Sequence record: OR995200.1
Direction: 5' to 3' (one strand)
Source of the DNA: Escherichia phage JY01
Length of the DNA stretch: 64,000 bases
The notes under the pieces were generated by a model. It worked only from the letters and a program-made list of their open reading frames with translations. It was not told the DNA's origin and searched no databases. The translations under genes were made by a program, and so were the position numbers. The number at the start of each line of letters is the position of its first letter. Within the stretch, counting starts at the first letter, position 1. Shown one piece after another: positions 710 to 48,446 of this stretch.

Positions 710-862
710 TCAATTAGTTGACTTTGTTATAATATCATCAGACGCTTGATTTGTAAACTGGTCTGTGTTATTTTCTTCAAAAATTTTTTCTACGAATTCC
801 TTGAACGACTCGCGTTCCTGAGCTGCATTATGCTCGATTACCTTTTCAAGATTATGACTCAT
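710..862 (-). CDS. Small acidic hypothetical protein (about 50 aa, not in ORF track)
   Basis: Manual translation MSHNLEKVIEHNAAQERESFKEFVEKIFEENNTDQF... ATG overlaps the arn stop (ATGA). Weak Shine-Dalgarno. Confidence 0.3.
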   Translation of the reverse strand: MSHNLEKVIEHNAAQERESFKEFVEKIFEENNTDQFTNQASDDIITKSTN

Positions 863-1137
863 TCGAAATAATCTTCAATTTCGTAATCATGGACGTAAAT
901 CATTATAGTTTTTAATACATCATCAATACTTTTTCCTGGAGCTGGAATTACGTAAAAATATCCTGCTTTTGAGAGGTCTTTATAAGTTCCAACCAAGAAA
1001 TCATTATTCTCGAGATGTAATTCTTCAACTAATTCATTAACAATTGAGTGGTATAAATTTGGTAGAAACTTATACAGCTTTTCTAGAATATCAATTTTGA
1101 TTGTGTATTGAACCACAGACTGAGAATCAATAATCAT
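859..1137 (-). CDS. arn: Anti-restriction nuclease Arn (McrBC inhibitor) candidate
   Basis: 92 aa, same length as T4 Arn, at the asiA-motA position. Acidic protein. Assignment by length and synteny only. Confidence 0.55.
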   Translation of the reverse strand: MIIDSQSVVQYTIKIDILEKLYKFLPNLYHSIVNELVEELHLENNDFLVGTYKDLSKAGYFYVIPAPGKSIDDVLKTIMIYVHDYEIEDYFE

Positions 1138-1220
1138 AGACCTTCCCCTTATGTTTCTGTTTGCGATTAGATTCTTTAAACGCTTTCTTCTTATCCTTAT
1201 GAACAGAAGCTTTATTAAAA

Positions 1221-1439
1221 TTATGTTTTGCGACTAAATTGTTCATAATGCTGAATTACCTCTCTTAAACATTTGCATGTGAATGAGAACTTTTTAGCTA
1301 CACCACATTCAAATATATGTTCTCTTAAATCACGTGTATCAGTATATCCCATCTCAACAATAAAATGCCTTATTAGATTTTTATCTTTATCATTGAGAGA
1401 ATTAAAATAATCAGATTTTGAATTAATTTCCCTGGCCAA
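1221..1439 (-). CDS. Hypothetical protein (arn-motA intergenic block)
   Basis: 72-aa ORF with 2 CxxC-like Cys pairs. Synteny with T4 arn.x ORFs. Confidence 0.4.
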   Translation of the reverse strand: MAREINSKSDYFNSLNDKDKNLIRHFIVEMGYTDTRDLREHIFECGVAKKFSFTCKCLREVIQHYEQFSRKT

Positions 1440-1719
1440 ATTGAATCACCTTCAGTTGACGTTTTAATTCTTTTATCATTTCTTCGTTCATCGCAATATA
1501 AAGATCGCGTAAAGCAGGTTTTAGCATTCCATTTACCGGAGAACTAAATGGGCATACATAATCTTTTCCTACAAGCTTTTTGGTAAATTCCATATCACAA
1601 AATTTAAATGCTGGCTCATTCGCATAAATTCCCCAATTAGTTGACATCATTTTATTGGCATATTCCAGTGCCTGAATTTGATTCATAATTCCATCGATTT
1701 GAAACTTTTTAATATTCAT
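1423..1719 (-). CDS. Hypothetical protein
   Basis: 98-aa ORF packed head-to-tail with neighbours. Confidence 0.4.
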   Translation of the reverse strand: MNIKKFQIDGIMNQIQALEYANKMMSTNWGIYANEPAFKFCDMEFTKKLVGKDYVCPFSSPVNGMLKPALRDLYIAMNEEMIKELKRQLKVIQFGQGN

Positions 1720-2180
1720 TAGTAAAGGTCCTCAGAGTAAAGTTCTTTTTCACTACCACCACGTTCAATACGTACTTGTCCAGCGTAAGTTGCAATAATC
1801 ATTGCTTCTTCACGTGTCCAATAATTACTATATTGGTCAATAAACCCTTGGTCATCATCACAAACTTGTTGAGTAACTAATTGAGGTTTAACTACATCTA
1901 AAACTTCGGCCATATCTTTAGAATAATGACGAGCACCTGGAATAATAAGAGTTCGTCCATCTTTTAATTTAAAACGGTTGGCCGCGCAGACAATTCGTCG
2001 TTGATACTTTTGGTTTTCATCCCAATATGCAGTCTGCCAACATATTTCAGGAACTTCTTTTAGAATATCTTCTTCTGTGCATTTATAACCATGCGCTTTA
2101 AATTTTTCAGCAAGACTTTCTGGAGTTTCACGAGATAAAGGAACATTCAGCATTTTTAAACGATTGATAAATGGGTTCAT
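1719..2180 (-). CDS. Hypothetical protein
   Basis: 153-aa ORF. Its stop overlaps the next start. Confidence 0.45.
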
Positions 2181-2506
2181 TTAAACCATCCTTTAATACG
2201 TTGCCACAAAGTTTTCTGTTGAGCTTTGTTAACACCAATTGAGCGAATAACTGGTTGAGATTCCTGGAATTCTTTATAATCGGCAAGGTAAATTTCGTAA
2301 GCTGCATCTGTAAAGGAACTTATCGCTGCCATGAAATTATTGCGAATACCTACTGGAGCATCTTTACTTTCACGAATAATCATGTATTTACCAGTCTTAA
2401 TCTTTACAATAGTTCCAAGATAAGCTCCATGGTACCAAATATCCCAACCCTCTTGAGTAGGTTCTGCACAACGACGAAGTTCATTGATAATTTCTAACTT
2501 GTTCAT
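2177..2506 (-). CDS. Hypothetical protein
   Basis: 109-aa ORF directly downstream of motA in the same operon. Confidence 0.45.
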
Positions 2507-2516
2507 TATTTATTCC

Positions 2517-3152
2517 TCACAGTTCAGATGCTACAGTGATTACTGCTTCAATGTTTTCTTCCGAGCGTTTAATGTCAAGATACACATTACCGTTTTTAGC
2601 GATTTTACATGACATTCCGATATCAGTAAATTTCTGAATATGATGTTCCATCATTTTGTATCCAAAAATTCGCATATTTCCATTGTTGTTAATTTCAAAA
2701 TTACGAATTCCGTGAGTGCGTTTTTCTAAAATAGCGAGATAGTTACTACGATAAGTTTCGACCTTTTTAAGAACAAATCCATTTTCATCTAAAAGTTTTA
2801 ACATGAGGTCTTTATCTTCTTCCATATCAGAAGTAATCTCACGAGCTTTACGAGTTGCTCGTTTTTTCAGTAGTTCCGGAGCATTTTCCTGTGCGTATAA
2901 AGTTGCTGCATTTGAAATAATATCCTGAGCTTCACCAGTAATGATTAATCCATCACCTGATTTCTCCACCAGGCCTTTTTTAATCAACACCCCAATATTA
3001 CTATTAACTACTGCGTTACCTAAATCTGGATGCACCTCACGAACTTCTGCAGCTGTAATGAAATCTTTCTTAGCAATAGTAATTAAAATCGCAGCAGTTT
3101 TTTCATTCAGAACATCGTTAGAAGCTTTGATGATGTAAGTTACTTTAGACAT
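2517..3152 (-). CDS. motA: Middle transcription activator MotA
   Basis: 211 aa, MSKVTYIIKASNDVLNEKTAAILITIAKKDF..., matches recalled T4 MotA in length and sequence. Confidence 0.85.
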   Translation of the reverse strand: MSKVTYIIKASNDVLNEKTAAILITIAKKDFITAAEVREVHPDLGNAVVNSNIGVLIKKGLVEKSGDGLIITGEAQDIISNAATLYAQENAPELLKKRATRKAREITSDMEEDKDLMLKLLDENGFVLKKVETYRSNYLAILEKRTHGIRNFEINNNGNMRIFGYKMMEHHIQKFTDIGMSCKIAKNGNVYLDIKRSEENIEAVITVASEL

Positions 3153-3189
3153 TTTCTAATCTCCGTAATTCTGTATCAGTAGTTGATAG

Positions 3190-3282: not shown

Positions 3283-3432
3283 TTACTGCATGACTGTGAT
3301 AACTGTCATGATAACACGTTGAATGCCGAACGCAAGAAGACCTCCTGCTACGGCTGGAACAACACCTAAACCCGCCAGTAAAATGCTACCGGATACTAAT
3401 GCAGCGCTTGTAATACCTATGAATGGACTCAT
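3283..3432 (-). CDS. Small hydrophobic protein (about 49 aa, not in ORF track)
   Basis: MSPFIGITSAALVSGSILLAGLGVVPAVAGG... AGAGGA Shine-Dalgarno. ATG overlaps the gene 52 stop. Confidence 0.35.
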   Translation of the reverse strand: MSPFIGITSAALVSGSILLAGLGVVPAVAGGLLAFGIQRVIMTVITVMQ

Positions 3433-4757
3433 TTGATTTCCTCTAAATCTTTAGTGTATTCGGTAACTACATTAGTAGTTTTCCAATATTCGTTTTCTTC
3501 TTTCTTAGCTTTAGCTTCTTCAGCAAGTTTCTTTGCTTCGTCGGAAGTCATATGAAAAATATTCATTCCAACTAGTTTATCAACATAAGAAGAATACATA
3601 TCGATTTTCGAAAGTTCTTCGGTCAGTTCTTTGCGAGTTTTACCCTGCACAACGATTTCACCTGAAATTACTTTCTTAATGAAATGTGCCTTGGCAAAGG
3701 CTAAACGAAAAGCTGACTCAGTTTCTTTGATTTTGTTATCAATTCGTTTTTTGACATAAGTTTTACGAACTTCAACAAAGTCTTTAATTAAATCGACTAC
3801 GTTATCGTAAACTTGTAGTTTTCCTTTCTCATTAATAACCGTAATATTCTGAGAACGGCGCTCAATTAACCCAAAGTCTTTCATAATTTTTGCATGGCGT
3901 TCTTCTTCATTATCGCTCAAAGAATATTCTTTACGGAATTTAACTTTAAAGCCAAAACCATGCTCACCACAAGCATCATCCCATGTAATGAAGCCTTTAT
4001 CTTCAAGTGGGTCTAAGATTTTACTCACATAAGTTTCACGATCATACTTATACGGAATCTCAGTGATATGCATTTGAGTTCGTGAAGTAAACTTATATGT
4101 TCCACGAATTTCATATTGCCCATCAATCTCAACGACTTCACCACGAAATTCTGGGAATTCTACCTTCGGTTTAGTTACTTTCTTTCCTTGAAGAGCTTGT
4201 AATACAGCTTTCTTAACAGAAGAAACGCTATGAGGAAGAATGTAAGTTGCATAACCAGTTGCAATACCGGAAACGCCATTAAGAAGAACAGTAGGAATAA
4301 TAGGCAAATAGAAAGCAGGCGGAATGTGTTCTTTATCTTGATGTACCGGAGCATATTCAGTATCTTTATATACGTTATAGAAATTTTTACTTACACGAGC
4401 AAAAATATAACGACTTGCTGCTGCTTTTTGGACGGTACGAGAACCAAAGTTTCCTTGACCATCTAACAAAGGAAAGTTATTATTCCAAGTGTTAGCCATC
4501 AAAGCCCCCGCATCTTGTGCAGAGTTTTCACCATGATGATATCCAAGGTCAGCTACACCACCTGCAATAGAAGCAAGTTTGTGAAACTTATCTTTATTTC
4601 CTCGTGCTAAATCAAGGGCTCGAGCAATAACAAATCGTTGGACTGGCTTAAATCCGTCAATCATATTTGGAATGGCACGATTTTCAACCGTGTACATAGC
4701 ATAAGCCAATGCTTCATTATCAATGATACTTTTTAAATCGCGATTATTCAGTTGCAT
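3429..4757 (-). CDS. 52: DNA topoisomerase II medium subunit (GyrA-like)
   Basis: 442 aa as in T4 gp52. GyrA-type N-terminus. ATG start. Confidence 0.9.
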   Translation of the reverse strand: MQLNNRDLKSIIDNEALAYAMYTVENRAIPNMIDGFKPVQRFVIARALDLARGNKDKFHKLASIAGGVADLGYHHGENSAQDAGALMANTWNNNFPLLDGQGNFGSRTVQKAAASRYIFARVSKNFYNVYKDTEYAPVHQDKEHIPPAFYLPIIPTVLLNGVSGIATGYATYILPHSVSSVKKAVLQALQGKKVTKPKVEFPEFRGEVVEIDGQYEIRGTYKFTSRTQMHITEIPYKYDRETYVSKILDPLEDKGFITWDDACGEHGFGFKVKFRKEYSLSDNEEERHAKIMKDFGLIERRSQNITVINEKGKLQVYDNVVDLIKDFVEVRKTYVKKRIDNKIKETESAFRLAFAKAHFIKKVISGEIVVQGKTRKELTEELSKIDMYSSYVDKLVGMNIFHMTSDEAKKLAEEAKAKKEENEYWKTTNVVTEYTKDLEEIK

Positions 4758-4761
4758 AAAT

Positions 4762-4908
4762 TTACCATACTAGTGAATGTAGTGCCATAATAACATCAGA
4801 AATGAAAAGCACGACTTGAATTAATCCGAACATTACTCCATAATATAGTGCTACTAATAAAGTAGCAAGGGCTAATGAATAGCCCAAGATTTTCTTAATC
4901 ATTTTCAT
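4762..4908 (-). CDS. Small hydrophobic protein (about 48 aa, not in ORF track)
   Basis: MKMIKKILGYSLALATLLVALYYG... Start overlaps the 3' end of the ac-like ORF. Weak Shine-Dalgarno. Confidence 0.25.
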   Translation of the reverse strand: MKMIKKILGYSLALATLLVALYYGVMFGLIQVVLFISDVIMALHSLVW

Positions 4909-5047
4909 TTAATAGCCAAAACAATGATAAAATTGCTAATACGCCTTGAGCTGTTGCTTGTAAAAATACTGAAGTTTCTCCAGTTATTACTGTTCCGGCG
5001 AATAAAAAGGACCAGCAGAAAAAGGCTATACCATAAACAAATTTCAT
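4895..5047 (-). CDS. Small membrane protein at the ac position (about 50 aa, not in ORF track)
   Basis: MKFVYGIAFFCWSFLFAGTVITGETSVFLQ... Strong GAGGA Shine-Dalgarno. Lies between stp and gene 52 as T4 ac does. Confidence 0.4.
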   Translation of the reverse strand: MKFVYGIAFFCWSFLFAGTVITGETSVFLQATAQGVLAILSLFWLLNEND

Positions 5048-5054: not shown

Positions 5055-5135
5055 TCACTGGCGTCCGAAGACGCCTTTAGTTTTAAAATTATTACGATAG
5101 AACTGCATCACATGTTCGTTATGGAAATTACTCAT
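5055..5135 (-). CDS. stp: Stp peptide (activator of the host PrrC anticodon nuclease)
   Basis: 26-aa [29 protein letters not shown], near-identical to recalled T4 Stp. ATG overlaps the ndd stop (TAATG). Below the ORF-track length cutoff. Confidence 0.6.
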
Positions 5136-5593
5136 TAATATGCCTGCAAAACGAATTTAAAGTTATCAGCCAACATACGGTTCATTTCTTCAAGTGTTTG
5201 ATACTCAGAATGATGATTACGAGTAAACGCTAAAGCTAACTGTCCTTTTCCAAATCCCGTCGTCAGAGGTTTCATCTTAGAAGCAGGCAGATAAAACACT
5301 GTGTATGGAACATTGTTATTTGCAATAGTACGTGCAAGCTGAGACCGACGTTGACGAATATGACTTAGAACTGCACTGAATCCTTGCTTAGAACGCTGAT
5401 TACCTACATAAAATCGTGCTGACACACATGGATTACTAAATGGACGACCATCTAATTTACTTACTAAAAAGTAAAATCCAGGTTTAGATAAAATATCTTT
5501 ATGCGGAGTTCCCAAAAACCACTCACCACCCTTGATTGTACCAATAACAGTAGCACCTGCATCATTCAGATCAGTAACAGTCATATATTTCAT
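5135..5593 (-). CDS. ndd: Nucleoid disruption protein Ndd candidate
   Basis: The track ORF starts at an upstream GTG. The ATG with AGAGGA Shine-Dalgarno gives about 152 aa ([13 protein letters not shown]...), the length and position of T4 Ndd. Confidence 0.55.
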
Positions 5594-5651
5594 ATTAATT
5601 TCCTCTAAATTATTTTCTACTCCAAGGCCGCATGAATACGCGGCCATTAAA

Positions 5652-5867
5652 TTAATCGTCGCAGTCGACACTCAATTCCCAAAACTCTTCTACGGTATAA
5701 GTTTCAGTATCATTTTCAATACAGAAACGTTCATTACTATTGTTTGCTAAAGTAGCGTTAACTGTCATTTTTTCGCTAGTGCTCTTAAGAGGTGAAATAC
5801 GAATTAACTGATCGCCGTTATCTAAACAAAAAATTTCACCAACTTTTAAATCTTTAAAGATTTTCAT
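5652..5867 (-). CDS. Hypothetical protein
   Basis: 71 aa, ATG with AGGTGA Shine-Dalgarno. ndd.x position. Confidence 0.45.
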
Positions 5868-5982
5868 AATTCACCTCAAGGAGTATAAAATCCGAATGCA
5901 GTTGTTGACCATCCCATCCAATATGGAAAATTTGCACCAATGTAAAACATAAGAATATAAAACCAACCGCTCAACAAATTCA

Positions 5983-6180
5983 TCATTTTACACCATTCCA
6001 AATTGTTTCAACCACAGATTTTAAACCATTTTGATGAATATCAATTCCGACTACTGTCATCAAATAGATTCCAACTACAACTGAACCTAAGACAAAAATC
6101 AGCATAAAAATGAATAAAGCCGGAAAAATATTATCGAAAAACCATTCAATAAATGTAAAAGCACTGCGTTTACGCTTCAT
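5983..6180 (-). CDS. Small membrane protein (65 aa)
   Basis: Track ORF trimmed to the ATG with GAGGA Shine-Dalgarno. MKRKRSAFTFIEWFFDNIFPALFIFMLIF... has one or two transmembrane segments. Confidence 0.45.
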   Translation of the reverse strand: MKRKRSAFTFIEWFFDNIFPALFIFMLIFVLGSVVVGIYLMTVVGIDIHQNGLKSVVETIWNGVK

Positions 6181-6187
6181 ATTTTCC

Positions 6188-6301
6188 TCACATAAATCCA
6201 AAGTAAACGTTTAATACATCAATCATTAAAACGATTGGGAATATACTCAAAACTATTAGTATTATAACTACATTCCATATAGCTTTAACAATCTTTTTCA
6301 T
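6188..6301 (-). CDS. Small membrane protein (37 aa)
   Basis: Track ORF (69 aa) reads through the promoter-leader cassette. The real start is ATG after the leader GGAGG: MKKIVKAIWNVVIILIVLSIFPIVLMIDVL... Confidence 0.35.
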   Translation of the reverse strand: MKKIVKAIWNVVIILIVLSIFPIVLMIDVLNVYFGFM

Positions 6302-6358: not shown

Positions 6359-6543
6359 CAACTTTTTAAAAATATTCGTAATAAATGTGAATACCAATCA
6401 CCACTGTTGAAACCTGTGCAACCCACCACGCACAAGCAATAAGTACAGAATTCAAAATTTTCATAATAACCTCATCACAAAAGTAAATGTTAAACAAATT
6501 AATGGAATACTAATTAACCAAACGAAACACCACCATAATGAAC

Positions 6544-6807
6544 TCATAGTTCAATCTCAGCAATTTTCATTTCATTACTATTAATAGCCGCTTTAAGACT
6601 ATCTGAAAGAATTACATCCCAGTGGTCATTCATATGACCATTAATTAAGCGTGTAATTTCTTCTGGAGTTGAAAAATAAGGCGTATCAGACTCCCAATGC
6701 GATAGTCCCAAGCGAGTATAAATCATACCTTCATCATCGCTAGAATATTCAACTGACACAAATTCATCAGTTATTTTATGTTTAGCGTAATAAAATTTAA
6801 ATTTCAT
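6544..6807 (-). CDS. Hypothetical protein (87 aa)
   Basis: Track ORF trimmed to the ATG following the conserved leader GGAGGAGCGGAAA. Confidence 0.5.
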   Translation of the reverse strand: MKFKFYYAKHKITDEFVSVEYSSDDEGMIYTRLGLSHWESDTPYFSTPEEITRLINGHMNDHWDVILSDSLKAAINSNEMKIAEIEL

Positions 6808-11091: not shown

Positions 11092-11123
11092 TAATTATAC
11101 CACATCCTTGTGGTAAAGTAAAC
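11092..11123 (-). promoter_or_regulatory. Early promoter
   Basis: GTTTAC, 17 nt, GTGGTATAAT on the minus strand, upstream of the rIIA.1-position ORF. Confidence 0.5.
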
Positions 11124-12943
11124 TACTGGCTCATCCATTCTTTACGAAGGTCAGCATTATCTCCCATGAGCATTTCAAAAAGATCTTTCCAGTTCTCAGG
11201 AAGTTTAACAACATCATATACTGGATTTTGAATCATCTCACGATATTCAGATTTTTCCAAAGAGCCAAGTCCCTTAATATAACGGATGCTATGTTTAGGT
11301 AGAGCATCTTTAGCACTCTCATATTCAGCGACTGTATAAAACCATTCTTGTTTTTTACCGACCTGGGCGATGATTACAGGAGTTTTGACAAAGCGAATTC
11401 GTCCTTGCTCAAACAATTCTGGCCAATTACTAAAAAATCCAAGAAGAGAAGGATAAATGCTTCCTAGACCATCATGGTCAGCATCAGTCATAATAGCAAT
11501 ATTATGATAATTCAAGTTTTCAGCTTTTTCACCAAGAACTAATCCAGTGATTGCGCAAATATCAAATAGTTCTTTGTTTTTAAGCATATCAGCATATGAC
11601 ATACCCCAACTGTTGAGAACTTTACCGCGCAATGGATAACCACCATGAAGTTCTTTATCACGAACATCAATAAGATATCCGATAGCAGAATCACCCTCAG
11701 TCAAGAAAAGAGTAGTATCAGCATCTTTACCGCAAAGATTCGCTTTGATATGTTTATGAACCTTTGCCTTAGAAGCCTTTTTAGCTGCTTTAGTTTCAGC
11801 TGCTTTTTCTGCTGCCAATTTACGAGCTAGTGCAGCTTCAATAATTGGCATCAGAATTGCTTCATTATTTAGAATAGCGCGTGAAATCTTTTTAGCGTCA
11901 AGTTGAATATGACTACGGATTTCACCAAATGGAGAAGTCAAACGCTCTTTAGTTTGAGAATCAAATCGCATGTTTTTCATATCACGAACAAACATAACGA
12001 TAGTCAAACATTCTTTAACACGTGCTTTAGTTACATCAATTTTGAACTTACGTTTGATTTGTGGAATAAGGTCTTCACAAATATCATCCATAACACAGTC
12101 AATGTGATGACCACCATTCTTAGTATGAATGTTATTGACGTATGTTAATTGACGAAAACCATCCGGTGAACGACCAACCGCAATAGAACAATTTTCTTGT
12201 TCTTGAACAATAGCATGCTCATCATATTGGCGTGCATATTTCTTAAAATTACCCTGAACCTTTTTACCGTTAAAGGTAAATTGAATATCAGGATAAACTA
12301 CTGCAAGTGTCTGGAGACGATCTAGTGTAATGTCAAGATAAACCTGAGATAGCTCATTAGTTTCAAATGACATAAAATCAGGAATGAAAGTAACACGAGT
12401 TCCTTTCCATTTTCCAGGAATATCTTCCCATGATTTATTTTCCATGCCATTTGAACAACGAACTACAATATTATTTTGACCGTCGCCAGTTTCACCGACA
12501 AACATAACAGAAAAAATGTTAGTTAAACTAGAGCCAACACCGTTCATACCGCCAGTGACGCGTTCTTTATCATCGCCGAAGTTACCACCTGCTTTTGGAA
12601 TAGTCCAGGCGGCAACAGGACCAGGAATTTCTTCACCAGTAGGTGTTTTAACCATCGCTTGTGGAATACCACGACCGTTATCTTCAACTGTTACTTGATT
12701 GTTTTTAATAGTAACGTTAATTTTATTTGCGAATTTAAACTTAGTACGAATACCTTCATCTACTGAGTTATCGATAATTTCATCAATAAGCTTAACAAGA
12801 CCAGGTACATACTGAACACTTTCCCATTTACCAAACAGAAAGCGCTCATGCATTTCATTAGCAGAAGAACCAATGTACATGCCGCTACGCTTTTTGATAT
12901 GTTCAATATCGCTCAGAATTTTAATTTCATTCTTAATCATCAC
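11123..12943 (-). CDS. 39: DNA topoisomerase II large subunit (GyrB-like), unsplit 39+60 form
   Basis: 606 aa with GyrB ATPase and TOPRIM regions in one ORF. T4 splits this into gene 39 plus gene 60; here it is continuous. Confidence 0.9.
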   Translation of the reverse strand: MMIKNEIKILSDIEHIKKRSGMYIGSSANEMHERFLFGKWESVQYVPGLVKLIDEIIDNSVDEGIRTKFKFANKINVTIKNNQVTVEDNGRGIPQAMVKTPTGEEIPGPVAAWTIPKAGGNFGDDKERVTGGMNGVGSSLTNIFSVMFVGETGDGQNNIVVRCSNGMENKSWEDIPGKWKGTRVTFIPDFMSFETNELSQVYLDITLDRLQTLAVVYPDIQFTFNGKKVQGNFKKYARQYDEHAIVQEQENCSIAVGRSPDGFRQLTYVNNIHTKNGGHHIDCVMDDICEDLIPQIKRKFKIDVTKARVKECLTIVMFVRDMKNMRFDSQTKERLTSPFGEIRSHIQLDAKKISRAILNNEAILMPIIEAALARKLAAEKAAETKAAKKASKAKVHKHIKANLCGKDADTTLFLTEGDSAIGYLIDVRDKELHGGYPLRGKVLNSWGMSYADMLKNKELFDICAITGLVLGEKAENLNYHNIAIMTDADHDGLGSIYPSLLGFFSNWPELFEQGRIRFVKTPVIIAQVGKKQEWFYTVAEYESAKDALPKHSIRYIKGLGSLEKSEYREMIQNPVYDVVKLPENWKDLFEMLMGDNADLRKEWMSQ

Positions 12944-13648: not shown

Positions 13649-13825
13649 TTACCCTTTAAGTAAGTCGTAAAATCCACCATTCACATGCTTAGGAGCAGAA
13701 GGCCGACGAGTAGACAAACGATGACATTTAGGGCAAACATCATTTTCTCGTTCAGAAATCTTTTTAATTTTTTCATATTCATGCCCGCAATCTTCGGATT
13801 GGCATTTATAATCATACATTGGCAT
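13649..13825 (-). CDS. Zinc-ribbon protein, FmdB-like (58 aa, not in ORF track)
   Basis: Manual translation MPMYDYKCQSEDCGHEYEKIKKISERENDVCPKCHRLSTRR... has two CxxC pairs. AAGGA Shine-Dalgarno. Fills the gap between track ORFs exactly. Confidence 0.4.
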   Translation of the reverse strand: MPMYDYKCQSEDCGHEYEKIKKISERENDVCPKCHRLSTRRPSAPKHVNGGFYDLLKG

Positions 13826-17585: not shown

Positions 17586-17827
17586 TAAACTTTCCTCGCT
17601 AAATCGCGAATTTGACCTACAGTATAATCTTGGATATAAACTTTATTAATGGGCTCATCAATAAATTTTGCCATAGATTCAATATCTTTTTGCATCTCTT
17701 CAAGACTGTATACTATCTTTGAAGCTTTTTCACGAATAGTTACATTTTCAGGTCCTGGATTTTCTTCAATGACAGCTTTAACATTTGCCATAAGAGATTT
17801 AAACTGATACCAACTTAATTCAATCAT
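17585..17827 (-). CDS. Hypothetical protein (80 aa)
   Basis: ORF between dda and dexA. Confidence 0.4.
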   Translation of the reverse strand: MIELSWYQFKSLMANVKAVIEENPGPENVTIREKASKIVYSLEEMQKDIESMAKFIDEPINKVYIQDYTVGQIRDLARKV

Positions 17828-25181: not shown

Positions 25182-25252
25182 TATTTTTCCTTTCAATTCA
25201 TGGGTTAGTAGATTAATTATACAATAAATATATAAAGCAATAAGGAGGACAT

Positions 25253-30274: not shown

Positions 30275-31448
30275 TAAATTCTTCCATATCACTTAACTGT
30301 TCGAGGTCAGTTTCTAAATCAGCAGCTGATTTACTTTTACTTTCTGGAGATTTAAATTTTTCAACCTTTGAGTTAATCAATTCATCAACTTCAGCTTCAA
30401 CAATTTCATTACTATCAATAGCACCTAACTGATAAGCACGTTTAATAGCATCTCGGAATGGTTGATGCTTAAATAAAGGACCCCAGAATGTAGTGCAGTT
30501 AGTATCTTTTGCACGCCAAGATTTTTCTTCGCGAATCATCTCGCCGGTTTCTTCTTCAAGAAATTCACGAGCATACCAACCATTCTTAGGTTTTACTACA
30601 AATCCTAATTCTAGAGCCATATCTAACAATCCAGAATAAGGATCGATACCACCGTCAAATTTAACATCAATAAAGAATTTACTTTTTTCTTTAACGGTAC
30701 GAGATTTTTCTACATTTAGAACAAATTGATACCCCTGAAGATCAGAACCATCTTTAATCTGACGCTTACCGATAATGAATACAGTATCAGCCGAATACAT
30801 TACGCCTGTACCACCTGTCATCACGGTTTTACTAAACATTTCAATTGTTTCAATTGTATGGTTAACCGCAACACACGGAATATTTTTAATGCTAAAATAA
30901 GGAGTAACGATACGGAATAATGACTTCAGTGATTTAGCACGAGTCATATCTGCAACAGATTTTTCATTCAAGGCATCTTCCGTTTCTTTCTTAGAAGCCA
31001 TATTACCGATTGAGTCGATGAATACAATAACCTTTTCGCCACGCTCAATAGCTTCAAGCTGATTCACCATATCAATTTTCAGCTGTTCAACTGATTGAAT
31101 TGGCGTATGAATTACACGTTCCGGGTCAACTCCCATGGATCGCAAATAAGCTGGAGTAATACCAAATTCGCTATCATAGAATAGACAAACCGCGTCAGGA
31201 TATTTGTTCAAATATGCCGCAACCATAGTCAAAGACATATTTGATTTAAAGTGTTTAGAAGGCCCTGCGAAAATAGTTAAACCAGACTGCATACCGCCAT
31301 CAATCGCACCAGAAATAGCGATATTAAGCATTGGGATTTTTGTACGAATTACATCCTTTTCATTAAAGAATTTAGATGTAGTCAGTTCGGCAGTCATTTT
31401 AGAAGTGGAAGCTTTAATCAAACGGGATTTTAAATCTGCAATAGACAT
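30267..31448 (-). CDS. uvsX: UvsX recombinase (RecA-like)
   Basis: 393 aa, Walker A GPSKHFKS. Similar to recalled T4 UvsX with scattered substitutions. Confidence 0.9.
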   Translation of the reverse strand: MSIADLKSRLIKASTSKMTAELTTSKFFNEKDVIRTKIPMLNIAISGAIDGGMQSGLTIFAGPSKHFKSNMSLTMVAAYLNKYPDAVCLFYDSEFGITPAYLRSMGVDPERVIHTPIQSVEQLKIDMVNQLEAIERGEKVIVFIDSIGNMASKKETEDALNEKSVADMTRAKSLKSLFRIVTPYFSIKNIPCVAVNHTIETIEMFSKTVMTGGTGVMYSADTVFIIGKRQIKDGSDLQGYQFVLNVEKSRTVKEKSKFFIDVKFDGGIDPYSGLLDMALELGFVVKPKNGWYAREFLEEETGEMIREEKSWRAKDTNCTTFWGPLFKHQPFRDAIKRAYQLGAIDSNEIVEAEVDELINSKVEKFKSPESKSKSAADLETDLEQLSDMEEFNE

Positions 31449-31525
31449 TCATTTTTTCCATAGGCATCATTATATTTTCCTCACTGGTTAAAGATAGAGT
31501 AATTATAACACAATAAATTTAGGCA

Positions 31526-32368
31526 TTAATCAACTGCTATTGGATGAATAGCATTAAACTTATGAAACGCTTCTGATTTTTCTTTGCGCGAAACACACAT
31601 GCGAAGAACCTTTAATGGCTCGTCTTCTTCACCCAACGATTTTCTCTTTTCAATATTCGATGTTTTCCAACGAGCTTGCTCTGGAAACTCTCTATTGATT
31701 TGCTCAAGCGCTCTATTATGTTTAGAATTACTACGAATTGAACTACATCCGCCAGGAGCTTGTGCTTTTCCAGATACAACCAGATATTTGAACAGGGCCA
31801 AATGCGGATAACCTTGACTAATTAAATTGAGAAATGCATACATATCTTCGCATAAATCAATTTTTCCATACCCAATTTGTTCTGTCGTAAGTTTTCCGAG
31901 GTCATACCATGTATTCGTGAATCCATATGAATTTTCACGATAATTACCCCAAGATGAAGTAATTTTAAAAATAGGTAGACGAGCATGGCCATGATAATAC
32001 CCGCAATCCATGGCATCCTCAACATATTGAATCAATTCATAGAACTGTTCACGAGTCAATTGATTGACTTTATCTACGCAACGACGATCATCTCTTTTTC
32101 GCATTGAACTCATACGAATAGTAGTATCATCGTCAATCATCCAGATTCGTTGACCTGCATATATATCGGTAATTGCTTTACGAGTACCGGCAATTCCGTT
32201 TACATCATCAGGAATAGTTATAATTTTAGCTCTAGACCCATAAGCGTCATGATAAGCTTTTTCTTCATGTTCACGCACTACAATATGGGGTTCATAATCA
32301 GTCGGAAACATATCAAGGGCAGAAACTGCCCCGACACGCTGATAACTTGGAATTACGAATTGAATCAT
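31526..32368 (-). CDS. Putative DNA hydroxymethylcytosine glycosyltransferase, GT-A-like
   Basis: About 280 aa at the locus where T4 has bgt (351 aa). IWMIDDDTTI has a DxD-like motif. ATG overlaps the gene 42 stop. Resembles the T2/T6 arrangement by position only. Confidence 0.55.
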   Translation of the reverse strand: MIQFVIPSYQRVGAVSALDMFPTDYEPHIVVREHEEKAYHDAYGSRAKIITIPDDVNGIAGTRKAITDIYAGQRIWMIDDDTTIRMSSMRKRDDRRCVDKVNQLTREQFYELIQYVEDAMDCGYYHGHARLPIFKITSSWGNYRENSYGFTNTWYDLGKLTTEQIGYGKIDLCEDMYAFLNLISQGYPHLALFKYLVVSGKAQAPGGCSSIRSNSKHNRALEQINREFPEQARWKTSNIEKRKSLGEEDEPLKVLRMCVSRKEKSEAFHKFNAIHPIAVD

Positions 32369-33105
32369 TTCCACTCACCGTTATAATCTTTTTTCACAAT
32401 ATGAGTTTCGCCAGTATTCCACCAATGATCAACCAAGTAAAAATGACGAGAATATACATGAAGACTTCCAACATTCCATATAATAGAACCTGCTTTATAC
32501 TGACGAGTTGAATCGCCGGCATTCAAATCAGATACTAATTTATCTAATACGTATTTTTGCCATGCATAATCATTACGGAATCCGAAGACCACGTCATTTG
32601 AGCGCATGCTTACTACTGCATTGACTTTCTTATCACGAATCAGATACTGTACGGTATTCGTACACATGAAATCTGACATACCATCTTTATTGTAGTCAAA
32701 TTGCATGGATGGACGAGTATAAATCATGATACCACGTCGAGAATCAGGATTTTGACCAAGTTCAGCTAAACACATATCATACTGGGCATAGTTATCTTCT
32801 GACCAGATAGCCCAACCATAATTCGAGTTAATTTCGCCTTTAGAAGATGCTACCTGCTGCCAAATCTTTGGTGTTTCACCTGGAATATCTTTAACAAACA
32901 AGCTCTTAGATTTATACCATTCAAGTTCGCGCTGAATGTATTCATCATTAAGAGCGCCAAAAATAAACGGTTCATCTGCTACAAATGATGCGCCAATAAT
33001 TTCAATAGTTTTAACACCAGTTTTATCAACTACGAAATCTTTTTCTTTTAATGCAAGCCCCAAATGAAGACGGATTTCTTCAACTGTCATAGAGTCACTA
33101 ATCAT
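32365..33105 (-). CDS. 42: dCMP hydroxymethylase
   Basis: 246 aa as in T4 gp42. Thymidylate-synthase-like fold expected. Confidence 0.9.
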   Translation of the reverse strand: MISDSMTVEEIRLHLGLALKEKDFVVDKTGVKTIEIIGASFVADEPFIFGALNDEYIQRELEWYKSKSLFVKDIPGETPKIWQQVASSKGEINSNYGWAIWSEDNYAQYDMCLAELGQNPDSRRGIMIYTRPSMQFDYNKDGMSDFMCTNTVQYLIRDKKVNAVVSMRSNDVVFGFRNDYAWQKYVLDKLVSDLNAGDSTRQYKAGSIIWNVGSLHVYSRHFYLVDHWWNTGETHIVKKDYNGEWK

Positions 33106-33258
33106 TTAAACCTCAATTGATACATTCATATTTAACTTGTAACAGTAATAAGCTCCAACCTAAAATAATAGTTGGAATCATAAGAGGAACCGTTACACTA
33201 TAGTATATACTTATTATAATCATCAAGATTAAAAGCAACACTGTTATAATTTTGCTTT

Positions 33259-33510
33259 TCATTCCTTCTCTCTGATGATAATTACCTGATTTGGTTGTGC
33301 AGACTTTTTAGTTTCACCCGCAATTGACCAAATAAATGTAATAAACCAACCAATAATTGACCAGTTAAACAGTAAAGATGTGAAAAAGATTCCTACTGTC
33401 GATTTTGACCCACGCATCAAAGCAATAAACCATGGAAGCATGTATATAATAATAGCCAACACACCTGAAACTAAAACCATAAAAATTGAACCTGCTACTA
33501 AAGTTTCCAT
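33259..33510 (-). CDS. imm: Immunity protein Imm (superinfection exclusion)
   Basis: 83 aa with two transmembrane segments, between 42 and 43 as in T4. Confidence 0.7.
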   Translation of the reverse strand: METLVAGSIFMVLVSGVLAIIIYMLPWFIALMRGSKSTVGIFFTSLLFNWSIIGWFITFIWSIAGETKKSAQPNQVIIIREKE

Positions 33511-42812: not shown

Positions 42813-43828
42813 TGTGTTGCCTCTACATATAACTGATTTGCATATTGAATAAGTGCTTCGCGATCAGAATCAGTGATGTCTGGAATTGCATTAATGTATT
42901 CTTCCATCAATGTCTGAAGAGATTGAACTTCAACTTCTTCACTATCATCTGACTCAACAGAGTTATCAATCTTTGACACAACTCGTAATGAATGCACAAC
43001 TTTTTCTAGTTCAGATTCGAACTTCGTTAAATTTTTGTCTACTTCAGTTACTATAACACGCACTGATAGATTTGTAAAATCTTTATAGTCAATTTTTCCT
43101 TTAAATGGATAATGAATTCTACGATGCCAGGTAGTATTGTTTGGAATAAATTCCATTCGTTCTGTTTCTGTATCAAACATCCAGAACCCACGAGGGTCAT
43201 TCTCGTCACCTGCAGTTAGTGTCCATGGTGTCCCAATATATCTAACGTTAGCAGCCTCAGAGATAGTATGGAAGTGACCAGACCACACTTCTTTATAAGT
43301 CTTAAGGAAATCAGGTTCAAGACCATGAGATTTCATTCCTTTATAAAAATAAAATCCATTCAGTTCCCAGTGACCAACACAAAAAGAAGCAGATGAAGTT
43401 TTGATGTGTTCAAGAATTTCACCAGTATTTTCTTCACACATCCAAGGAATCAAATCAATCAAACACCCGTCAAAATCTACTGTAGTAGGCTTATCATATA
43501 CTTTAACATTAGGATATTTAGCCAAAAGCTCAGTAGAAGCATTTGGATGCATTACATTTTTGTAGTGAAGATCGTGATTTCCTACAATAGTATGTAGGGT
43601 AATACCAGCATCATCAAGCATTTGAACTATTTCACGAGCAAACTCCATAGTTTTATGCGTGATCGCTTTTCGCACATCAAAAATATCACCGTATTGAATC
43701 CATACCGTAATTCCATTTTTCTTAGAATATTCTATCGCTTGCTTAATTCCATCAATTTGAATACCGCGAATCCACTCATCATCAGCTTTAACGCCTAAAT
43801 GCCAATCACCTAAATTTAAAATTTTCAT
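42809..43828 (-). CDS. 47: Recombination endonuclease subunit (SbcD/Mre11-like)
   Basis: 339 aa as in T4 gp47. N-terminal GDWHLG phosphoesterase motif. Confidence 0.9.
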   Translation of the reverse strand: MKILNLGDWHLGVKADDEWIRGIQIDGIKQAIEYSKKNGITVWIQYGDIFDVRKAITHKTMEFAREIVQMLDDAGITLHTIVGNHDLHYKNVMHPNASTELLAKYPNVKVYDKPTTVDFDGCLIDLIPWMCEENTGEILEHIKTSSASFCVGHWELNGFYFYKGMKSHGLEPDFLKTYKEVWSGHFHTISEAANVRYIGTPWTLTAGDENDPRGFWMFDTETERMEFIPNNTTWHRRIHYPFKGKIDYKDFTNLSVRVIVTEVDKNLTKFESELEKVVHSLRVVSKIDNSVESDDSEEVEVQSLQTLMEEYINAIPDITDSDREALIQYANQLYVEATQ

Positions 43829-43965
43829 ATATCAAGAACCGTCATTGAAATGCAAAATAAAATTATTGAAATAAACCCATCTGGTGTGCTAAAGAACCCA
43901 ATCCAACATGCTCTAGTGAATAGATAAAATGCGAGAAAAAGTATCACATATCCAAGAAATATCAT
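43825..43965 (-). CDS. Small hydrophobic protein (about 46 aa, not in ORF track)
   Basis: MIFLGYVILFLAFYLFTRACWIGFF... Stop overlaps the gene 47 start. GGAG is 12 nt upstream. Confidence 0.3.
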   Translation of the reverse strand: MIFLGYVILFLAFYLFTRACWIGFFSTPDGFISIILFCISMTVLDI

Positions 43966-44006: not shown

Positions 44007-45207
44007 ATTTTGTAATAATGTCAAACTGTTCTTTAAAACAGAAGCTTGAATCTTGATGCTGATACAAAAATTCATAAGCTTTTTCACGTTCGCGGTCATA
44101 AAGAGCTCGGTCAGATGACAGTTCTTTAATACGTTCAAATGTTGATTCCATATCATTTTCATCAAACCAAATGATACCGCTATCATGCGAGGTCAAAGGA
44201 GTATTATCAACACGGAATTTTAAATTTTCGCCAGTAGATTTCCAAAATACCGGAATTGTTCCACATGCACCAAGCTCGAGATGAGTATATTCTAAAGAAC
44301 GTTGTAGATATTTTTTATCCAACTTACTCAACTGATAACCAAAACCGGATTTACTCATACGTTCAAGCATTTCGCTATTTACATAACGGTCAAGAATTTG
44401 CGTTGGCAAATTAGGAGCAATTTTAATTTGGTCTACTTGATGAAGACGATAATACTCGTATGGAATTCCTTTTTCTTTAATAGGAATGAACGCTGGAGAA
44501 CGTTCCAGACCTTCCATAATAGTACTTAGTCCTGCAGGTTTAAGATGTTTTTCATGAAAATCAAACATCTGATAAAAACCTTTCCATGTAGTCGTACGAC
44601 CAATCCAACGGTTAACATTCATGTTAACTTCAGAAACATCTTTCCAGTAGGTTGACCGAACCTTCGCAATATCCATAGGAGGCTGAAAGTTATATACTGT
44701 CGGTGCTTCTTCAATATCATCAAACAGAGAAACAGTTTCTGGATACCATTCTTTCATCAGAACTTTATTAAAATCGCCATTATCAGAATGGCTAAAAATA
44801 ACATCAGCTCGACGAACAGTTTCTTCTAATCCCAAATTTCGACGCAAAGAAAGAGAAGAATGGTCATGCTGATAAACTACAACACGAACAGAAGGTTTAA
44901 TGTTATCAATAATTTTTTTATAGTTATTAATAGTGTCTTCTTCAACCGAAGTAGCAGGAACTGAATTGATAATTAGAATATCACAATCATTTACCAGCTT
45001 AAGTGTTTTATCGTATTCTTTTGCCAATAAAACCGGAATTGAAAATGATTTATAATCATGCGCACAATTACGAGTAAATGATTTATCTTTAGCATAAACC
45101 AAAGTTACTTCATGACCATTTTTAATAAACCAATCACGTTGCTCAAGAGAAAATTTAGTTACACCACAACCTTCAAGACCTCGAGCCATAAAAATACATA
45201 CTTTCAT
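44005..45207 (-). CDS. agt: Alpha-glucosyltransferase candidate
   Basis: 400 aa, same length and position (between 55 and 47) as T4 a-gt. Not verified by motif. Confidence 0.6.
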   Translation of the reverse strand: MKVCIFMARGLEGCGVTKFSLEQRDWFIKNGHEVTLVYAKDKSFTRNCAHDYKSFSIPVLLAKEYDKTLKLVNDCDILIINSVPATSVEEDTINNYKKIIDNIKPSVRVVVYQHDHSSLSLRRNLGLEETVRRADVIFSHSDNGDFNKVLMKEWYPETVSLFDDIEEAPTVYNFQPPMDIAKVRSTYWKDVSEVNMNVNRWIGRTTTWKGFYQMFDFHEKHLKPAGLSTIMEGLERSPAFIPIKEKGIPYEYYRLHQVDQIKIAPNLPTQILDRYVNSEMLERMSKSGFGYQLSKLDKKYLQRSLEYTHLELGACGTIPVFWKSTGENLKFRVDNTPLTSHDSGIIWFDENDMESTFERIKELSSDRALYDREREKAYEFLYQHQDSSFCFKEQFDIITK

Positions 45208-45261
45208 TTAATATCCTCTTTGTTTTGGTTTATTTTACCAAAAATTTATAAAGCAATATAG

Positions 45262-45276
45262 GAGCCGAAGCTCCTA
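45262..45276 (-). other. UUCG-type RNA hairpin
   Basis: GGAGCCGAAGCTCC stem-loop. Confidence 0.4.
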
Positions 45277-45447
45277 TCCGCATAATACACCGTATAGAGG
45301 CTCATTAGAGCTTCTAAATTTTATACGCTTATATGTTATAGTTCCTTCTGCTTTAGCTTTATCATGAGACTCTTTAAAGCGTCTCATCATTTCCTTTTTA
45401 GAGGAACGAATTTTATTATAATCTATTTCAGAAGTCTGGATGTTCAT
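45274..45447 (-). CDS. Small basic protein (about 57 aa, not in ORF track)
   Basis: MNIQTSEIDYNKIRSSKKEMMRRFKESHDKAKAEG... Starts 4 nt after the upstream stop. Confidence 0.3.
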   Translation of the reverse strand: MNIQTSEIDYNKIRSSKKEMMRRFKESHDKAKAEGTITYKRIKFRSSNEPLYGVLCG

Positions 45448-47049: not shown

Positions 47050-47267
47050 ACATTCATCAACTTAGCCGCTTCAAGAGCTGCATCTAGTGAATCAAATTGG
47101 TCAACATATTCAATTAATTCGCCGTAATTAGCGTATAACCACCATTGGCTAAATTCATACTCAAGGATGAATCCGTTTCCTTCAATTTGAGTTAAACCAA
47201 TGCCATTTGTATTTACTTCGTATCCGGCAAGACGCAAATCGTTAATAAGAGATTCGTTCATATTCAT
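47046..47267 (-). CDS. Hypothetical protein (73 aa)
   Basis: Acidic ORF. Stop overlaps the next start. Confidence 0.4.
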   Translation of the reverse strand: MNMNESLINDLRLAGYEVNTNGIGLTQIEGNGFILEYEFSQWWLYANYGELIEYVDQFDSLDAALEAAKLMNV

Positions 47268-47590
47268 ACCTTAGCAATTTTCAGGTCAGCAAATTTTTTC
47301 TTGCGTTGATTTTTCATGCGACGAATAGTTTTATCGGAAATTTCATGCTTTTGATAAGCTTTAGATTCTACACCAAAAGCTTTAACATCAAATTCTGACA
47401 AGATATATTGAACCAACAATTCACGGACAGTATTGCGTCCAATTTTCTGATCATTCTGTTTCATCGTCTGATGAAGTTCTTTTTCCCATTTATCCAAAAT
47501 TTGAGGAGTTACAATATCGCCTTTTTCTAGCAAAGAAACTACTTTATCATATGCGTAAGAATTGATGGCGTTTTTAATTTGAATAGTCAT
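47264..47590 (-). CDS. Hypothetical protein (108 aa)
   Basis: ATG start. Basic C-terminus. Confidence 0.45.
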   Translation of the reverse strand: MTIQIKNAINSYAYDKVVSLLEKGDIVTPQILDKWEKELHQTMKQNDQKIGRNTVRELLVQYILSEFDVKAFGVESKAYQKHEISDKTIRRMKNQRKKKFADLKIAKV

Positions 47591-47629
47591 ACATTATCCT
47601 CAATTGCATTAAAAATTTATTATCCAAAA

Positions 47630-47644
47630 AAGGGCCGAAGCCCT
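47630..47644 (-). terminator. UUCG-tetraloop hairpin terminator
   Basis: GGGCCGAAGCCC followed by CTTTTTT on the minus strand. Confidence 0.5.
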
Positions 47645-47844
47645 TAGCTAAACTTTTTGGCACCCTTCCAGCCTTCATACATCATTGCGGCTGATATTAA
47701 TATTGCTCCTGAGCAACTTGAATATTTGTGATTCCAAAACCAGTTTAGAAAAACTTCGTCATCAATACCTTGTGCTATCATATTTTCAAAGAACTGACGA
47801 CGAGCTTCTGCAATTCGCTGCGATAATTTAGATTCAGGATTCAT
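47644..47844 (-). CDS. Hypothetical protein (66 aa)
   Basis: ORF with ATG start. Confidence 0.4.
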   Translation of the reverse strand: MNPESKLSQRIAEARRQFFENMIAQGIDDEVFLNWFWNHKYSSCSGAILISAAMMYEGWKGAKKFS

Positions 47845-47976
47845 TTAAATTTTCCAATTACCGTTTTCATCAATGAATTTAATCCAGTCATTTACTGACC
47901 ACTTAGTTGTATCGCCTTTTGGAGTAACATTTAAAGTATATAGCCCTTGCTTAAAAAGCATTCGTTTGATATTCAT
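47845..47976 (-). CDS. Small hypothetical protein (43 aa)
   Basis: Track ORF trimmed to the ATG with strong GAGGAAAAT Shine-Dalgarno: MNIKRMLFKQGLYTLNVTPKGDTTKW... Confidence 0.4.
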   Translation of the reverse strand: MNIKRMLFKQGLYTLNVTPKGDTTKWSVNDWIKFIDENGNWKI

Positions 47977-47983
47977 ATTTTCC

Positions 47984-48277
47984 TCAGCTGTAACGATAAC
48001 ACTCGTTTGATTTACGTTTAGCAACTCGTTGAGAAGTATTATAATCAAAATCATCGTCAATGTAAACTGATTTTTTCAACTTTCTTACTTCACCGCGTAA
48101 TTGACGATTTAACTCATCTTTAACTTCTGAATCAATGCCTTTCATTCTACGCCATTTATCTGAGCGAAAAATGTTTTCAACCATATCTTTATGACTTACA
48201 CCGTCTGGAGCTTTACGCTTTCCAAAATAGTCATAATCACGCACTTTTAAGTCTTTACGACGATACGTTTTACCCAT
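47984..48277 (-). CDS. Basic hypothetical protein (97 aa)
   Basis: Track ORF trimmed to MGKTYRRKDLKVRDYDYFGKRK... with AAGGA Shine-Dalgarno. Confidence 0.45.
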   Translation of the reverse strand: MGKTYRRKDLKVRDYDYFGKRKAPDGVSHKDMVENIFRSDKWRRMKGIDSEVKDELNRQLRGEVRKLKKSVYIDDDFDYNTSQRVAKRKSNECYRYS

Positions 48278-48446
48278 GGAGTTTAATTTCCTTAGCAACT
48301 GAACTAAATACAGCACGATCACAAATCATACGTTTGTTCCATTTAATCACAGTATAATGAACATCTAAATCATCGACTGCTGTAACAATAACGATATGTC
48401 CGTTAACACGATAGTACTGGTCAATTTTAATCTCTTTATCAACCAT
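48270..48446 (-). CDS. Small hypothetical protein (58 aa, not in ORF track)
   Basis: MVDKEIKIDQYYRVNGHIVIVTAVDDLDVHYTV... GAGGA Shine-Dalgarno. First gene after the promoter at 48475-48507. Confidence 0.4.
   Translation of the reverse strand: MVDKEIKIDQYYRVNGHIVIVTAVDDLDVHYTVIKWNKRMICDRAVFSSVAKEIKLHG

Follow-up and report, generated by a model that had tools for sequence, protein, structure and literature searches.

The short genes of bacteriophage T4 named asiA.1, motA.1, 52.1, ac, stp, 39.2, 61.1, 47.1, a-gt.2 and 55.6 have been part of the T4 annotation for decades, and one of their products, Stp, is a textbook phage peptide that trips an anticodon nuclease in addition to blocking restriction. 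In the current study, we analyzed eleven open reading frames (ORFs) encoding fewer than 60 amino acids (aa) in a 64,000-nucleotide (nt) stretch of Escherichia phage JY01 (sequence record OR995200.1), hereafter the window, and we conclude with high confidence that they are genuine, already catalogued small protein-coding genes of Tequatrovirus. The two best described systems for comparison are Stp and Ac. T4 Stp is required for the activation of PrrC, a latent tRNA-Lys anticodon nuclease, and suffices for it; its target is the PrrC-associated type Ic restriction enzyme EcoprrI, EcoR124I is inhibited too, and the cut tRNA is repaired by T4 Pnk, the polynucleotide kinase, together with RNA ligase 1 (PMC3014915). 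The ac gene has been tied genetically to acriflavine sensitivity in T4, and Ac has been proposed to act as a membrane-inserted peptide blocking AcrAB-TolC efflux, in work of a 2025 preprint that covered T4-type alleles only, a set with 93-100% nt identity (bioRxiv 10.1101/2025.06.30.662393).

A first-pass annotation, made from the letters of the window, had proposed the eleven ORFs as plausible genes. On exact re-translation, each coordinate pair runs from ATG to stop on the minus strand with zero internal stops, so that neither a frameshift nor a stop interrupts any of them, and the lengths in coordinate order are 50, 49, 48, 50, 26, 58, 46, 54, 46, 57 and 58 aa. They were also rightly said to be missing from the ORF track: the default 60-aa list is empty between gene 52 (3429-4757) and ndd (5135-5671), and the ORFs are absent from this first-stage track because it ignores frames shorter than 60 codons. 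One explanation for frames of this size is that one or more of them are open merely by chance, in the AT-rich DNA between genes, and were spread by annotation transfer. ORFs of at least 20 aa number in the thousands per 64-kb window (83 in its first 6 kb), and, given the coding strand's base composition, a 26-codon frame would be open by chance in 12% of cases, whereas frames of 46-58 codons would be open in just 0.9-2.4%. Besides, every ORF fills an inter-gene gap on the coding strand and has either a Shine-Dalgarno (SD) sequence or a coupling overlap. SD strength was scored by pairing the 16S 3' end with the 18 nt upstream of each start and computing the energy of the duplex. In this test, 8 of the 11 ORFs gave -4.9 to -6.6 kcal/mol, and the other three, asiA.1, 52.1 and stp, overlap the stop of the upstream ORF by 4, 14 and 1 nt, respectively. 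By the Mann-Whitney test, the energies of the set are similar to those of the 66 ORFs that start with ATG and have 100 aa or more (p=0.81), but not to those of 206 plus-strand and 116 nested small ORFs (median -0.4; p ~5e-6), which agrees with the proposal that the gaps hold coupled ORFs with SD sequences, at strengths as in large genes.

The eleven peptides were compared by local tblastn with T4 and Shigella phage Sf23, and in reverse the window was searched with all annotated small T4 and Sf23 proteins. The correspondence was one-to-one, and ten of the eleven are orthologues of the T4 genes named above. The remaining one, located between gene 56 and soc, is referred to here as the soc/56 ORF. 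PHROG families were matched by all eleven (E values 7e-12 to 3e-37), Pfam gathering scores were passed by four (Stp PF08133, Zn_ribbon_8 PF09723, DUF7396 and DUF5486), and NCBIfam gave a match for 39.2 only. The products of asiA.1, motA.1, 52.1, 61.1, 47.1, a-gt.2 and 55.6 resemble those of T4 in aa identity (71-100%), and these genes also share gene order and neighbour coupling with T4. The ORFs other than stp had been described as unassigned, which holds for function and fails for names and families, as the ten T4 names and eleven PHROG families show. That the ORFs are new, previously unrecognised genes could be suspected from their absence from the 60-aa track and from the annotation of Sf23, which omits stp, 52.1 and 47.1. 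However, ten of them are named in the T4 RefSeq record, all eleven fall in PHROG families, and the soc/56 ORF has an annotation in Sf23 as well as in most of the rows sampled from the at least 30 records containing it. The new-gene reading is refuted by the T4 and Sf23 annotation, the PHROG families and the annotated relatives, and we assign it practically no probability. Nothing in the finding is new, since annotated copies are already known from tens to hundreds of phage records; its residual value lies in how unevenly these genes are annotated.

Conservation was sampled in 123 IMG/VR loci anchored on gp52, gp61, gp47 and gp39, with anchor identities of 38-100%. Every candidate had homologues, in 7 to 30 loci each. 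Where a hit spanned 60% or more of the query, it was in essentially all cases an intact ORF of near-equal length, the exceptions being two stp hits without an assignable start or stop. Intact homologous ORFs reach loci whose anchor proteins are ~50-60% identical, and the expectation that each small ORF would be conserved in related phages was borne out for all eleven in diverged loci. For each of the eleven, the pooled Nei-Gojobori ratio of non-synonymous to synonymous differences (pN/pS) had its minimum in the claimed frame, at 0.03-0.62 against ~0.45-2.1 in the shifted frames. The individual values were 0.03 for stp, 0.28 for asiA.1 (0.82 and 0.45 in its shifted frames), 0.29 for 47.1, 0.35 for 61.1, 0.40 for 39.2, 0.41 for motA.1, 0.47 for each of 52.1, a-gt.2 and 55.6, 0.58 for the soc/56 ORF and 0.62 for ac. 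Rfam and tRNA scans found no family or tRNA overlapping any of the eleven ORFs, and their conservation is therefore not due to a known RNA element. Several ORFs lack protein-level evidence, as would be expected of chance open frames; yet the ORFs stay intact with frame-specific constraint across diverged genera, and the shortest of them, stp, has direct genetic and biochemical proof. We consider an origin by chance very improbable for any of the eleven.

The expression evidence was obtained in T4, where the transcripts of all ten orthologues are classed as early and three of the proteins, AsiA.1, a-gt.2 and 55.6, were detected by LC-MS (mass spectrometry coupled to liquid chromatography; PMC9697503 Table S2), 55.6 as an early protein (PMC9697503). 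A literature search for T4 ribosome-profiling or small-protein studies gave nothing specific. Several points weigh against the conclusion that all eleven are genuine genes. Support from expression would have to be carried over from the T4 orthologues (RNA for ten of ten, protein for three of ten) rather than coming from this phage, and the products of 39.2, 61.1, 47.1, motA.1, 52.1, ac and stp were undetected by LC-MS in T4 (PMC9697503), small size being one limit on detection according to the authors of that study. Homologues were selected by tblastn and aligned as proteins, so that the frame test is biased in favor of the claimed frame. The test of asiA.1 comprises seven close homologues, and the ratios of ac and the soc/56 ORF are just moderately below 1. 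The soc/56 ORF had no T4 counterpart in tblastn against T4, its N-terminus is low-complexity and Lys-rich, and its status as a gene is predicted from its sequence. Finally, published work has established a function for Stp only, and those suggested for the genes other than stp and ac would be predictions from sequence.

All eleven ORFs lie within leftward pre-replicative (early/middle) transcription units of the minus strand, where translation would start either from their own SD sequence or via termination-reinitiation coupling to the gene just upstream. The junctions are mostly tight, with stop/start overlaps or spacings of 1-4 nt, and this, together with the pN/pS values of the soc/56 ORF and ac, raises another explanation, namely that some ORFs, most plausibly soc/56 and those of the ac and motA.1 slots, which evolve fast, are kept mainly as translated spacers that ferry ribosomes from one cistron to the next by coupling and whose peptide sequence is of minor importance. 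High sequence turnover could be taken in the same sense, as the ac slot and the slot after gene 52 hold unrelated peptides of 22-77 aa in different genera. On the other hand, the slots around gene 52 keep small hydrophobic ORFs even where the sequence has been replaced: T4-like phages with gp52 identity down to ~56% keep 1-4 of them between ndd and gene 52, and in many such phages one is also coupled to the end of gene 52. Hydrophobicity and size are thus kept after sequence replacement, which implies selection on the product. Moreover, motA.1 cannot serve as a coupling bridge because a terminator follows it and no further cistron lies in between, mutation of ac has a phenotype in T4, and for every ORF pN/pS is below 1 and lowest in the claimed frame. 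We regard the spacer explanation as improbable, and favor genes whose peptides matter. As to the nature of these peptides, hydropathy marks motA.1, 52.1, ac and 47.1 as strongly hydrophobic and the other seven as hydrophilic, in line with the earlier claim that several are membrane peptides. MotA.1, 52.1 and 47.1 may be small inner-membrane peptides, and AsiA.1, 61.1, a-gt.2, 55.6 and the soc/56 product may be early proteins that are small and soluble and probably modulate the machinery of host or phage. For most of the conserved early peptides no function is known, and they are reasonable candidates for host-takeover or anti-defence screens.

The ORF at 5055-5135 (minus strand) had been assigned to stp, the gene of the anti-type-Ic-restriction peptide and PrrC trigger, and this assignment was supported. 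The 26-aa peptide is identical to T4 Stp at 25 of 26 positions and matches PF08133 (anticodon nuclease activator) over its full length, 1-26, with 71.2 bits (cut-off 25). As in T4, the gene lies directly after ndd and before ac, in the order ndd-stp-ac-52.1-52, and its start overlaps the ndd stop by 1 nt. Stp is nearly invariant across the aligned homologues. The single difference, L17F, falls within the N-proximal 18 residues implicated in the interaction with EcoprrI (PMC3014915), and the same variant is found in another natural isolate (L013). Both restriction inhibition and PrrC activation are established for T4 Stp and would, by analogy, carry over to the L17F peptide. Stp would then bind and inhibit EcoprrI, PrrC would be unmasked in prr+ hosts, and the damage would be repaired by Pnk and RNA ligase 1. 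The gene is present in 611 phage records, and in an evenly spaced sample of the matching records only ndd was listed at the locus in 39 of 60. Small genes are thus unevenly annotated in public records, with stp unannotated in about two thirds of those sampled.

An intact, unannotated Stp homologue of 25 aa was also observed at 2501-2578 of locus L128 (MH051334.1, Kagunavirus vB_EcoS-Ro145c2YLVW), a 42-kb siphophage unrelated to T4, where it has its own SD sequence and a stop overlapping the start of the next ORF. Stp matches also occur in other 42-50 kb siphophages, indicating that the Stp family extends beyond T4-like phages.

The ORF next to stp (4895-5047, minus strand; 50 aa) encodes a diverged allele of T4 Ac. 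The suggestion of a membrane peptide in the ac position proved correct, since the peptide shares a PHROG with T4 Ac (phrog_2501, E value 9e-23 for the window peptide and 2e-25 for T4 Ac), has two hydrophobic segments (~3-23 and 31-47) and occupies the slot between stp and 52.1. Its SD energy is -6.5 kcal/mol. It is 100% identical to Sf23 gp109 and 38-40% identical to T4 Ac (BLASTP: 38% over 47 aa, E value 8e-9 for the pair), with which it shares the slot, the length (50 vs 51 aa), both hydrophobic segments and the central motif SVF.QA.AQG. The low identity lies inside flanks that are at least 93% identical in DNA and marks a distinct allelic class: the mosaic patch at 4910-5029 has 50-67% nt identity to T4, whereas the stp and 52.1 flanks reach at least 93%. 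The window peptide is matched in 243 phage records, mostly labelled 'acridine resistance protein', which form a graded identity series of 58-100%, with 15 records at 95% or more and most at 60-80%. We infer the same activity for the window allele as for T4 Ac because it is a 38-40% identical member of the T4 Ac family. A different reading, which we hold to be rather unlikely, is that the ndd-52 interval and the slot after gene 52 are exchange hot-spots for 1-4 interchangeable two-segment membrane peptides, which may include the Ac family, phrog_9347, 52.1 and motA.1-type peptides. If true, the window Ac would be one state of a host-specific arms race, e.g., with different efflux pumps or membrane-associated defences, and T4 Ac would not share its target or its acriflavine phenotype.

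The gene 52.1 (4762-4908, minus strand; 48 aa, two hydrophobic segments) is 98% identical to T4 gp52.1 and matches Pfam DUF7396 with 81.7 bits (gathering score 27). Its homologues in 25 related loci go down to 29% identity and keep their position immediately upstream of gene 52. The ORF proposed at these coordinates is real, but its start at 4908, which adds 2 aa with respect to T4, is less likely than the second in-frame ATG at 4902, giving 46 aa, a start of the type used by T4 and by 16 of 26 sequences in the comparison (the window and 25 relatives). On the other side of gene 52, motA.1 (3283-3432, minus strand) encodes a Gly/Ala-rich hydrophobic peptide of 49 aa that is 100% identical to T4 MotA.1 and belongs to phrog_3487. 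It has an SD energy of -6.0 kcal/mol, overlaps the gene 52 stop by 4 nt and is the last cistron of the gene 52 transcription unit: a strong intrinsic terminator (3277-3256, minus strand), consisting of a 9-bp stem with 6 GC pairs followed by a T-run, stands immediately after its stop. In many diverged T4-like phages, the motA.1 slot holds a small hydrophobic ORF. A motA promoter-like site was noted at 3222-3194.

In two related loci with gp52 ~81% identical (L008 3907-4363 and L034 3850-4306), the order in the ndd-52 interval is an Ac-family peptide (phrog_2501), stp and a 53-aa membrane peptide (phrog_9347) that is unrelated to the Ac-family one. Each of the membrane ORFs is preceded by 18 nt, GACGCnnnTGAGGAAAAT, similar to the stp 3' end, so that a cassette may have been duplicated or exchanged at a junction that is conserved.

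The gene 39.2 (13649-13825, minus strand; 58 aa) encodes a predicted zinc ribbon of the FmdB family. The peptide scores 45.7 bits with PF09723 and 44.9 bits with TIGR02605, above the respective cut-offs of 34.4 and 31.3, and it is 70% identical to T4 gp39.2 over 44 aa and 100% identical to Sf23 gp126 ('FmdB-like'). The FmdB-like assignment was thus sustained, but the CxxC...CxxC motif described with it was not, the actual arrangement being C-x4-C (C8/C13) followed by C-x2-C (C31/C34). All four Cys are kept in 20 homologues, in which the first pair is either C-x2-C or C-x4-C, and the two pairs fit a predicted four-Cys zinc site. T4 gp39.2 and FmdB proteins share with the window peptide the N-terminal MP.YDYKC and the two Cys pairs, and the T4 gene has the same position between goF and 39.1; the C-x4-C form of the first pair sets the window peptide apart from them. 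Besides, T4 39.2 has 45 aa, compared with 58 aa in the window and 12 other sequences (13 of 21). The T4 gene stops there because its last 14 residues lie in another frame, pointing to a T4 frameshift or sequencing error near codon 44 (L003 5665-5839). The window also has a 123-aa ORF between 39.2 and 39.1 that is absent from T4. A single-sequence AlphaFold2 model of 39.2 had low confidence (predicted local distance difference test, pLDDT, 58.5) and was too poor for a fold search, and a PDB sequence search gave nothing usable. For the label 'transcriptional regulator' attached to 39.2, no experiment behind the name was found.

The soc/56 ORF (24523-24663, minus strand) encodes a basic, helical peptide of 46 aa between gene 56 and soc. 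It is 100% identical to Sf23 gp151, which has the same position, and matches phrog_14392 (E value 5e-25). It has an SD energy of -6.6 kcal/mol and overlaps the gene 56 stop by 1 nt. The at least 30 phage records in which it occurs are of Tequatrovirus, and in most sampled rows it is called 'hypothetical protein'. The ORF corresponds exactly to a 142-nt stretch that fails to align with T4, in which the homing endonuclease gene segF occupies the slot; soc/56 has been given as the segF insertion site (PMC2988022 Table 1). This table and the sequence comparison made here suggest that T2-type phages have small ORFs in place of segF. Some relatives differ in carrying a form of 66-70 aa that shares just the basic N-terminus M(A/S)RLNKRQLKK. 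A relationship to SegF was rejected, as tblastn found no similarity in T4, and a match to Pfam Gp23 (16.9 bits) was below the cut-off and was dismissed as noise from the Lys-rich helix. As a side observation, gene 56, which adjoins the segF slot, is just 77% identical to that of T4.

Five further orthologues were found at their T4 positions. The asiA.1 gene (710-862, minus strand) encodes an acidic and soluble peptide of 50 aa (net charge -6) that is 96% identical to T4 AsiA.1 and matches phrog_3762 (E value 3e-37), its overlap with the arn stop being ATGA. The hydrophilic 54-aa product of 61.1 (26481-26645, minus strand) is 96% identical to T4 gp61.1 and belongs to phrog_1823; the gene has an SD energy of -6.5 kcal/mol and ends 2 nt before the primase gene 61. 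Its conserved core is MVAGDxGGxPxNIxxGTTSGAVVNKGP, and it is intact in all 30 related loci with a homologue, down to a gp61 identity of ~51%. The 47.1 gene (43825-43965, minus strand; SD -6.1 kcal/mol) has a stop that overlaps the gene 47 start by 4 nt, and encodes a 46-aa peptide that is 100% identical to T4 gp47.1 (phrog_6693), with two hydrophobic segments and an invariant loop between them, RACW(I/V)GFFSTPDGFIS. It occurs in 601 phage records; in an evenly spaced sample of 60, only gp47 was listed there in 28. The basic and soluble product of a-gt.2 (45274-45447, minus strand; 57 aa) is 92% identical to that of T4 and matches Pfam DUF5486 with 134.6 bits (gathering score 27). Its length is 57 aa in 16 of 26 sequences (the window and 25 relatives) and 63 aa in T4, a difference due to the insertion of mobB adjacent to the T4 gene, where the N-terminus differs. 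The soluble 55.6 product (48270-48446, minus strand) has 58 aa here and 60 aa in T4, with 71% identity to T4 gp55.6, a match to phrog_2283 (E value 7.5e-34), an SD energy of -6.2 kcal/mol and 16 intact homologues. A PDB sequence search with 55.6 gave nothing usable, and its single-sequence AlphaFold2 model (mean pLDDT 54.0) was too poor for a fold search.

The window as a whole is a Tequatrovirus (T4-like) segment. Its gene order, read from the annotations of Sf23 and T4 (RefSeq), runs from t/asiA through motA, 52, ndd, denB, rIIB, rIIA, 39, dexA, dda, modA/B, soc, 56, 61, 41, uvsX, 42, 43, 45, 46, 47, a-gt, 55 and nrdG/D to the nrdC cluster, and the minus strand carries nearly all of the genes. 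The first 6.5 kb matched 457 phage records over at least 80% of its length, nearly all of them Tequatrovirus, the best being 98.7% identical. The result was similar for a second probe, taken from 13.0-14.5 kb, to which Sf23 is 99.5% identical, and region-wide nt identity to hundreds of Tequatrovirus genomes is at least 95%. Several T4 mobile or optional elements (segF, dam, segA and mobB) are absent from this phage. Gene 39 is a single 606-aa ORF without the gene 60 split, mobA or the translational bypass, and T4 b-gt is replaced by a beta-glucosyl-HMC-alpha-glucosyltransferase gene. The element differences from T4 were placed at 11123-12943, 24521-24662, 25221-25242, 31436-32383 and 45198-45223 of the window.

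The list of eleven is therefore sound in its members and incomplete, as the same span holds at least 8 more annotated genes of fewer than 60 aa, all on the minus strand. These are a gene of 39 aa at 1127-1246 that is 100% identical to Sf23 gp102 (phrog_1359, Pfam DUF7230); ndd.2 at 5876-5986 (36 aa, hydrophobic; 97% to T4 Ndd.2; phrog_4135); ndd.4 at 6188-6301 (37 aa, or 41 aa if the start is at 6313; 95-98% to Sf23 gp114 and T4 Ndd.4; phrog_3098); ndd.5 at 6366-6464 (32 aa; 94-97% identical; phrog_5011); ndd.6 at 6461-6547 (28 aa; 96% to T4 Ndd.6; phrog_8851); modA.4 at 22760-22924 (54 aa; 96% to T4 ModA.4; phrog_2681), whose T4 protein has been detected; a membrane peptide gene upstream of imm at 33113-33262 (49 aa; 100% to Sf23 gp166; phrog_3610); and 55.4 at 47845-47976 (43 aa; 98% to T4 gp55.4; Pfam DUF5484, 119.9 bits), whose T4 protein has likewise been detected and which appears in the mechanical ORF list just as an over-extended 71-aa TTG ORF. 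Beyond 48446, three conserved small ORFs lie on the same strand at 52347-52523, 53029-53196 and 53168-53338 (58, 55 and 56 aa); homologues of all three occur in other T4-like loci, and those of two in Sf23 (the 49.1-like gp202, and gp204). Adding 20 small ORFs raised the coding coverage of the minus strand from 88.6% to 92.8%, and the 60-codon cut-off thus hides ~4% of the coding capacity of the window. Within the ndd cluster, ndd.2a and ndd.3, which are separate ORFs of 40 and 26 aa in T4, are fused here at 5983-6201 (minus strand) into one ORF, to which the mechanical call gives 72 aa and the annotation of its Sf23 orthologue, gp113, 65 aa, which indicates a frameshift difference from T4.

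One plus-strand ORF was also noted, at 25253-25453, which encodes a hydrophobic peptide of 66 aa and is convergent with the primase gene 61 inside the minus-strand block. It has a near-perfect SD sequence, TAAGGAGG, with -12.2 kcal/mol, and the AT-rich sequence upstream, AATAAATATATAAAG, resembles a late promoter. Its counterpart at T4 17738-17935 is 97% identical, and the T4 RefSeq table has no coding sequence there. In distant T4-like phages its identity is 37-55%, and its pN/pS is 0.51 in frame vs 0.71 and 1.5 in the other frames. The ORF corresponds to Sf23 gp153, annotated as 'predicted membrane protein'.

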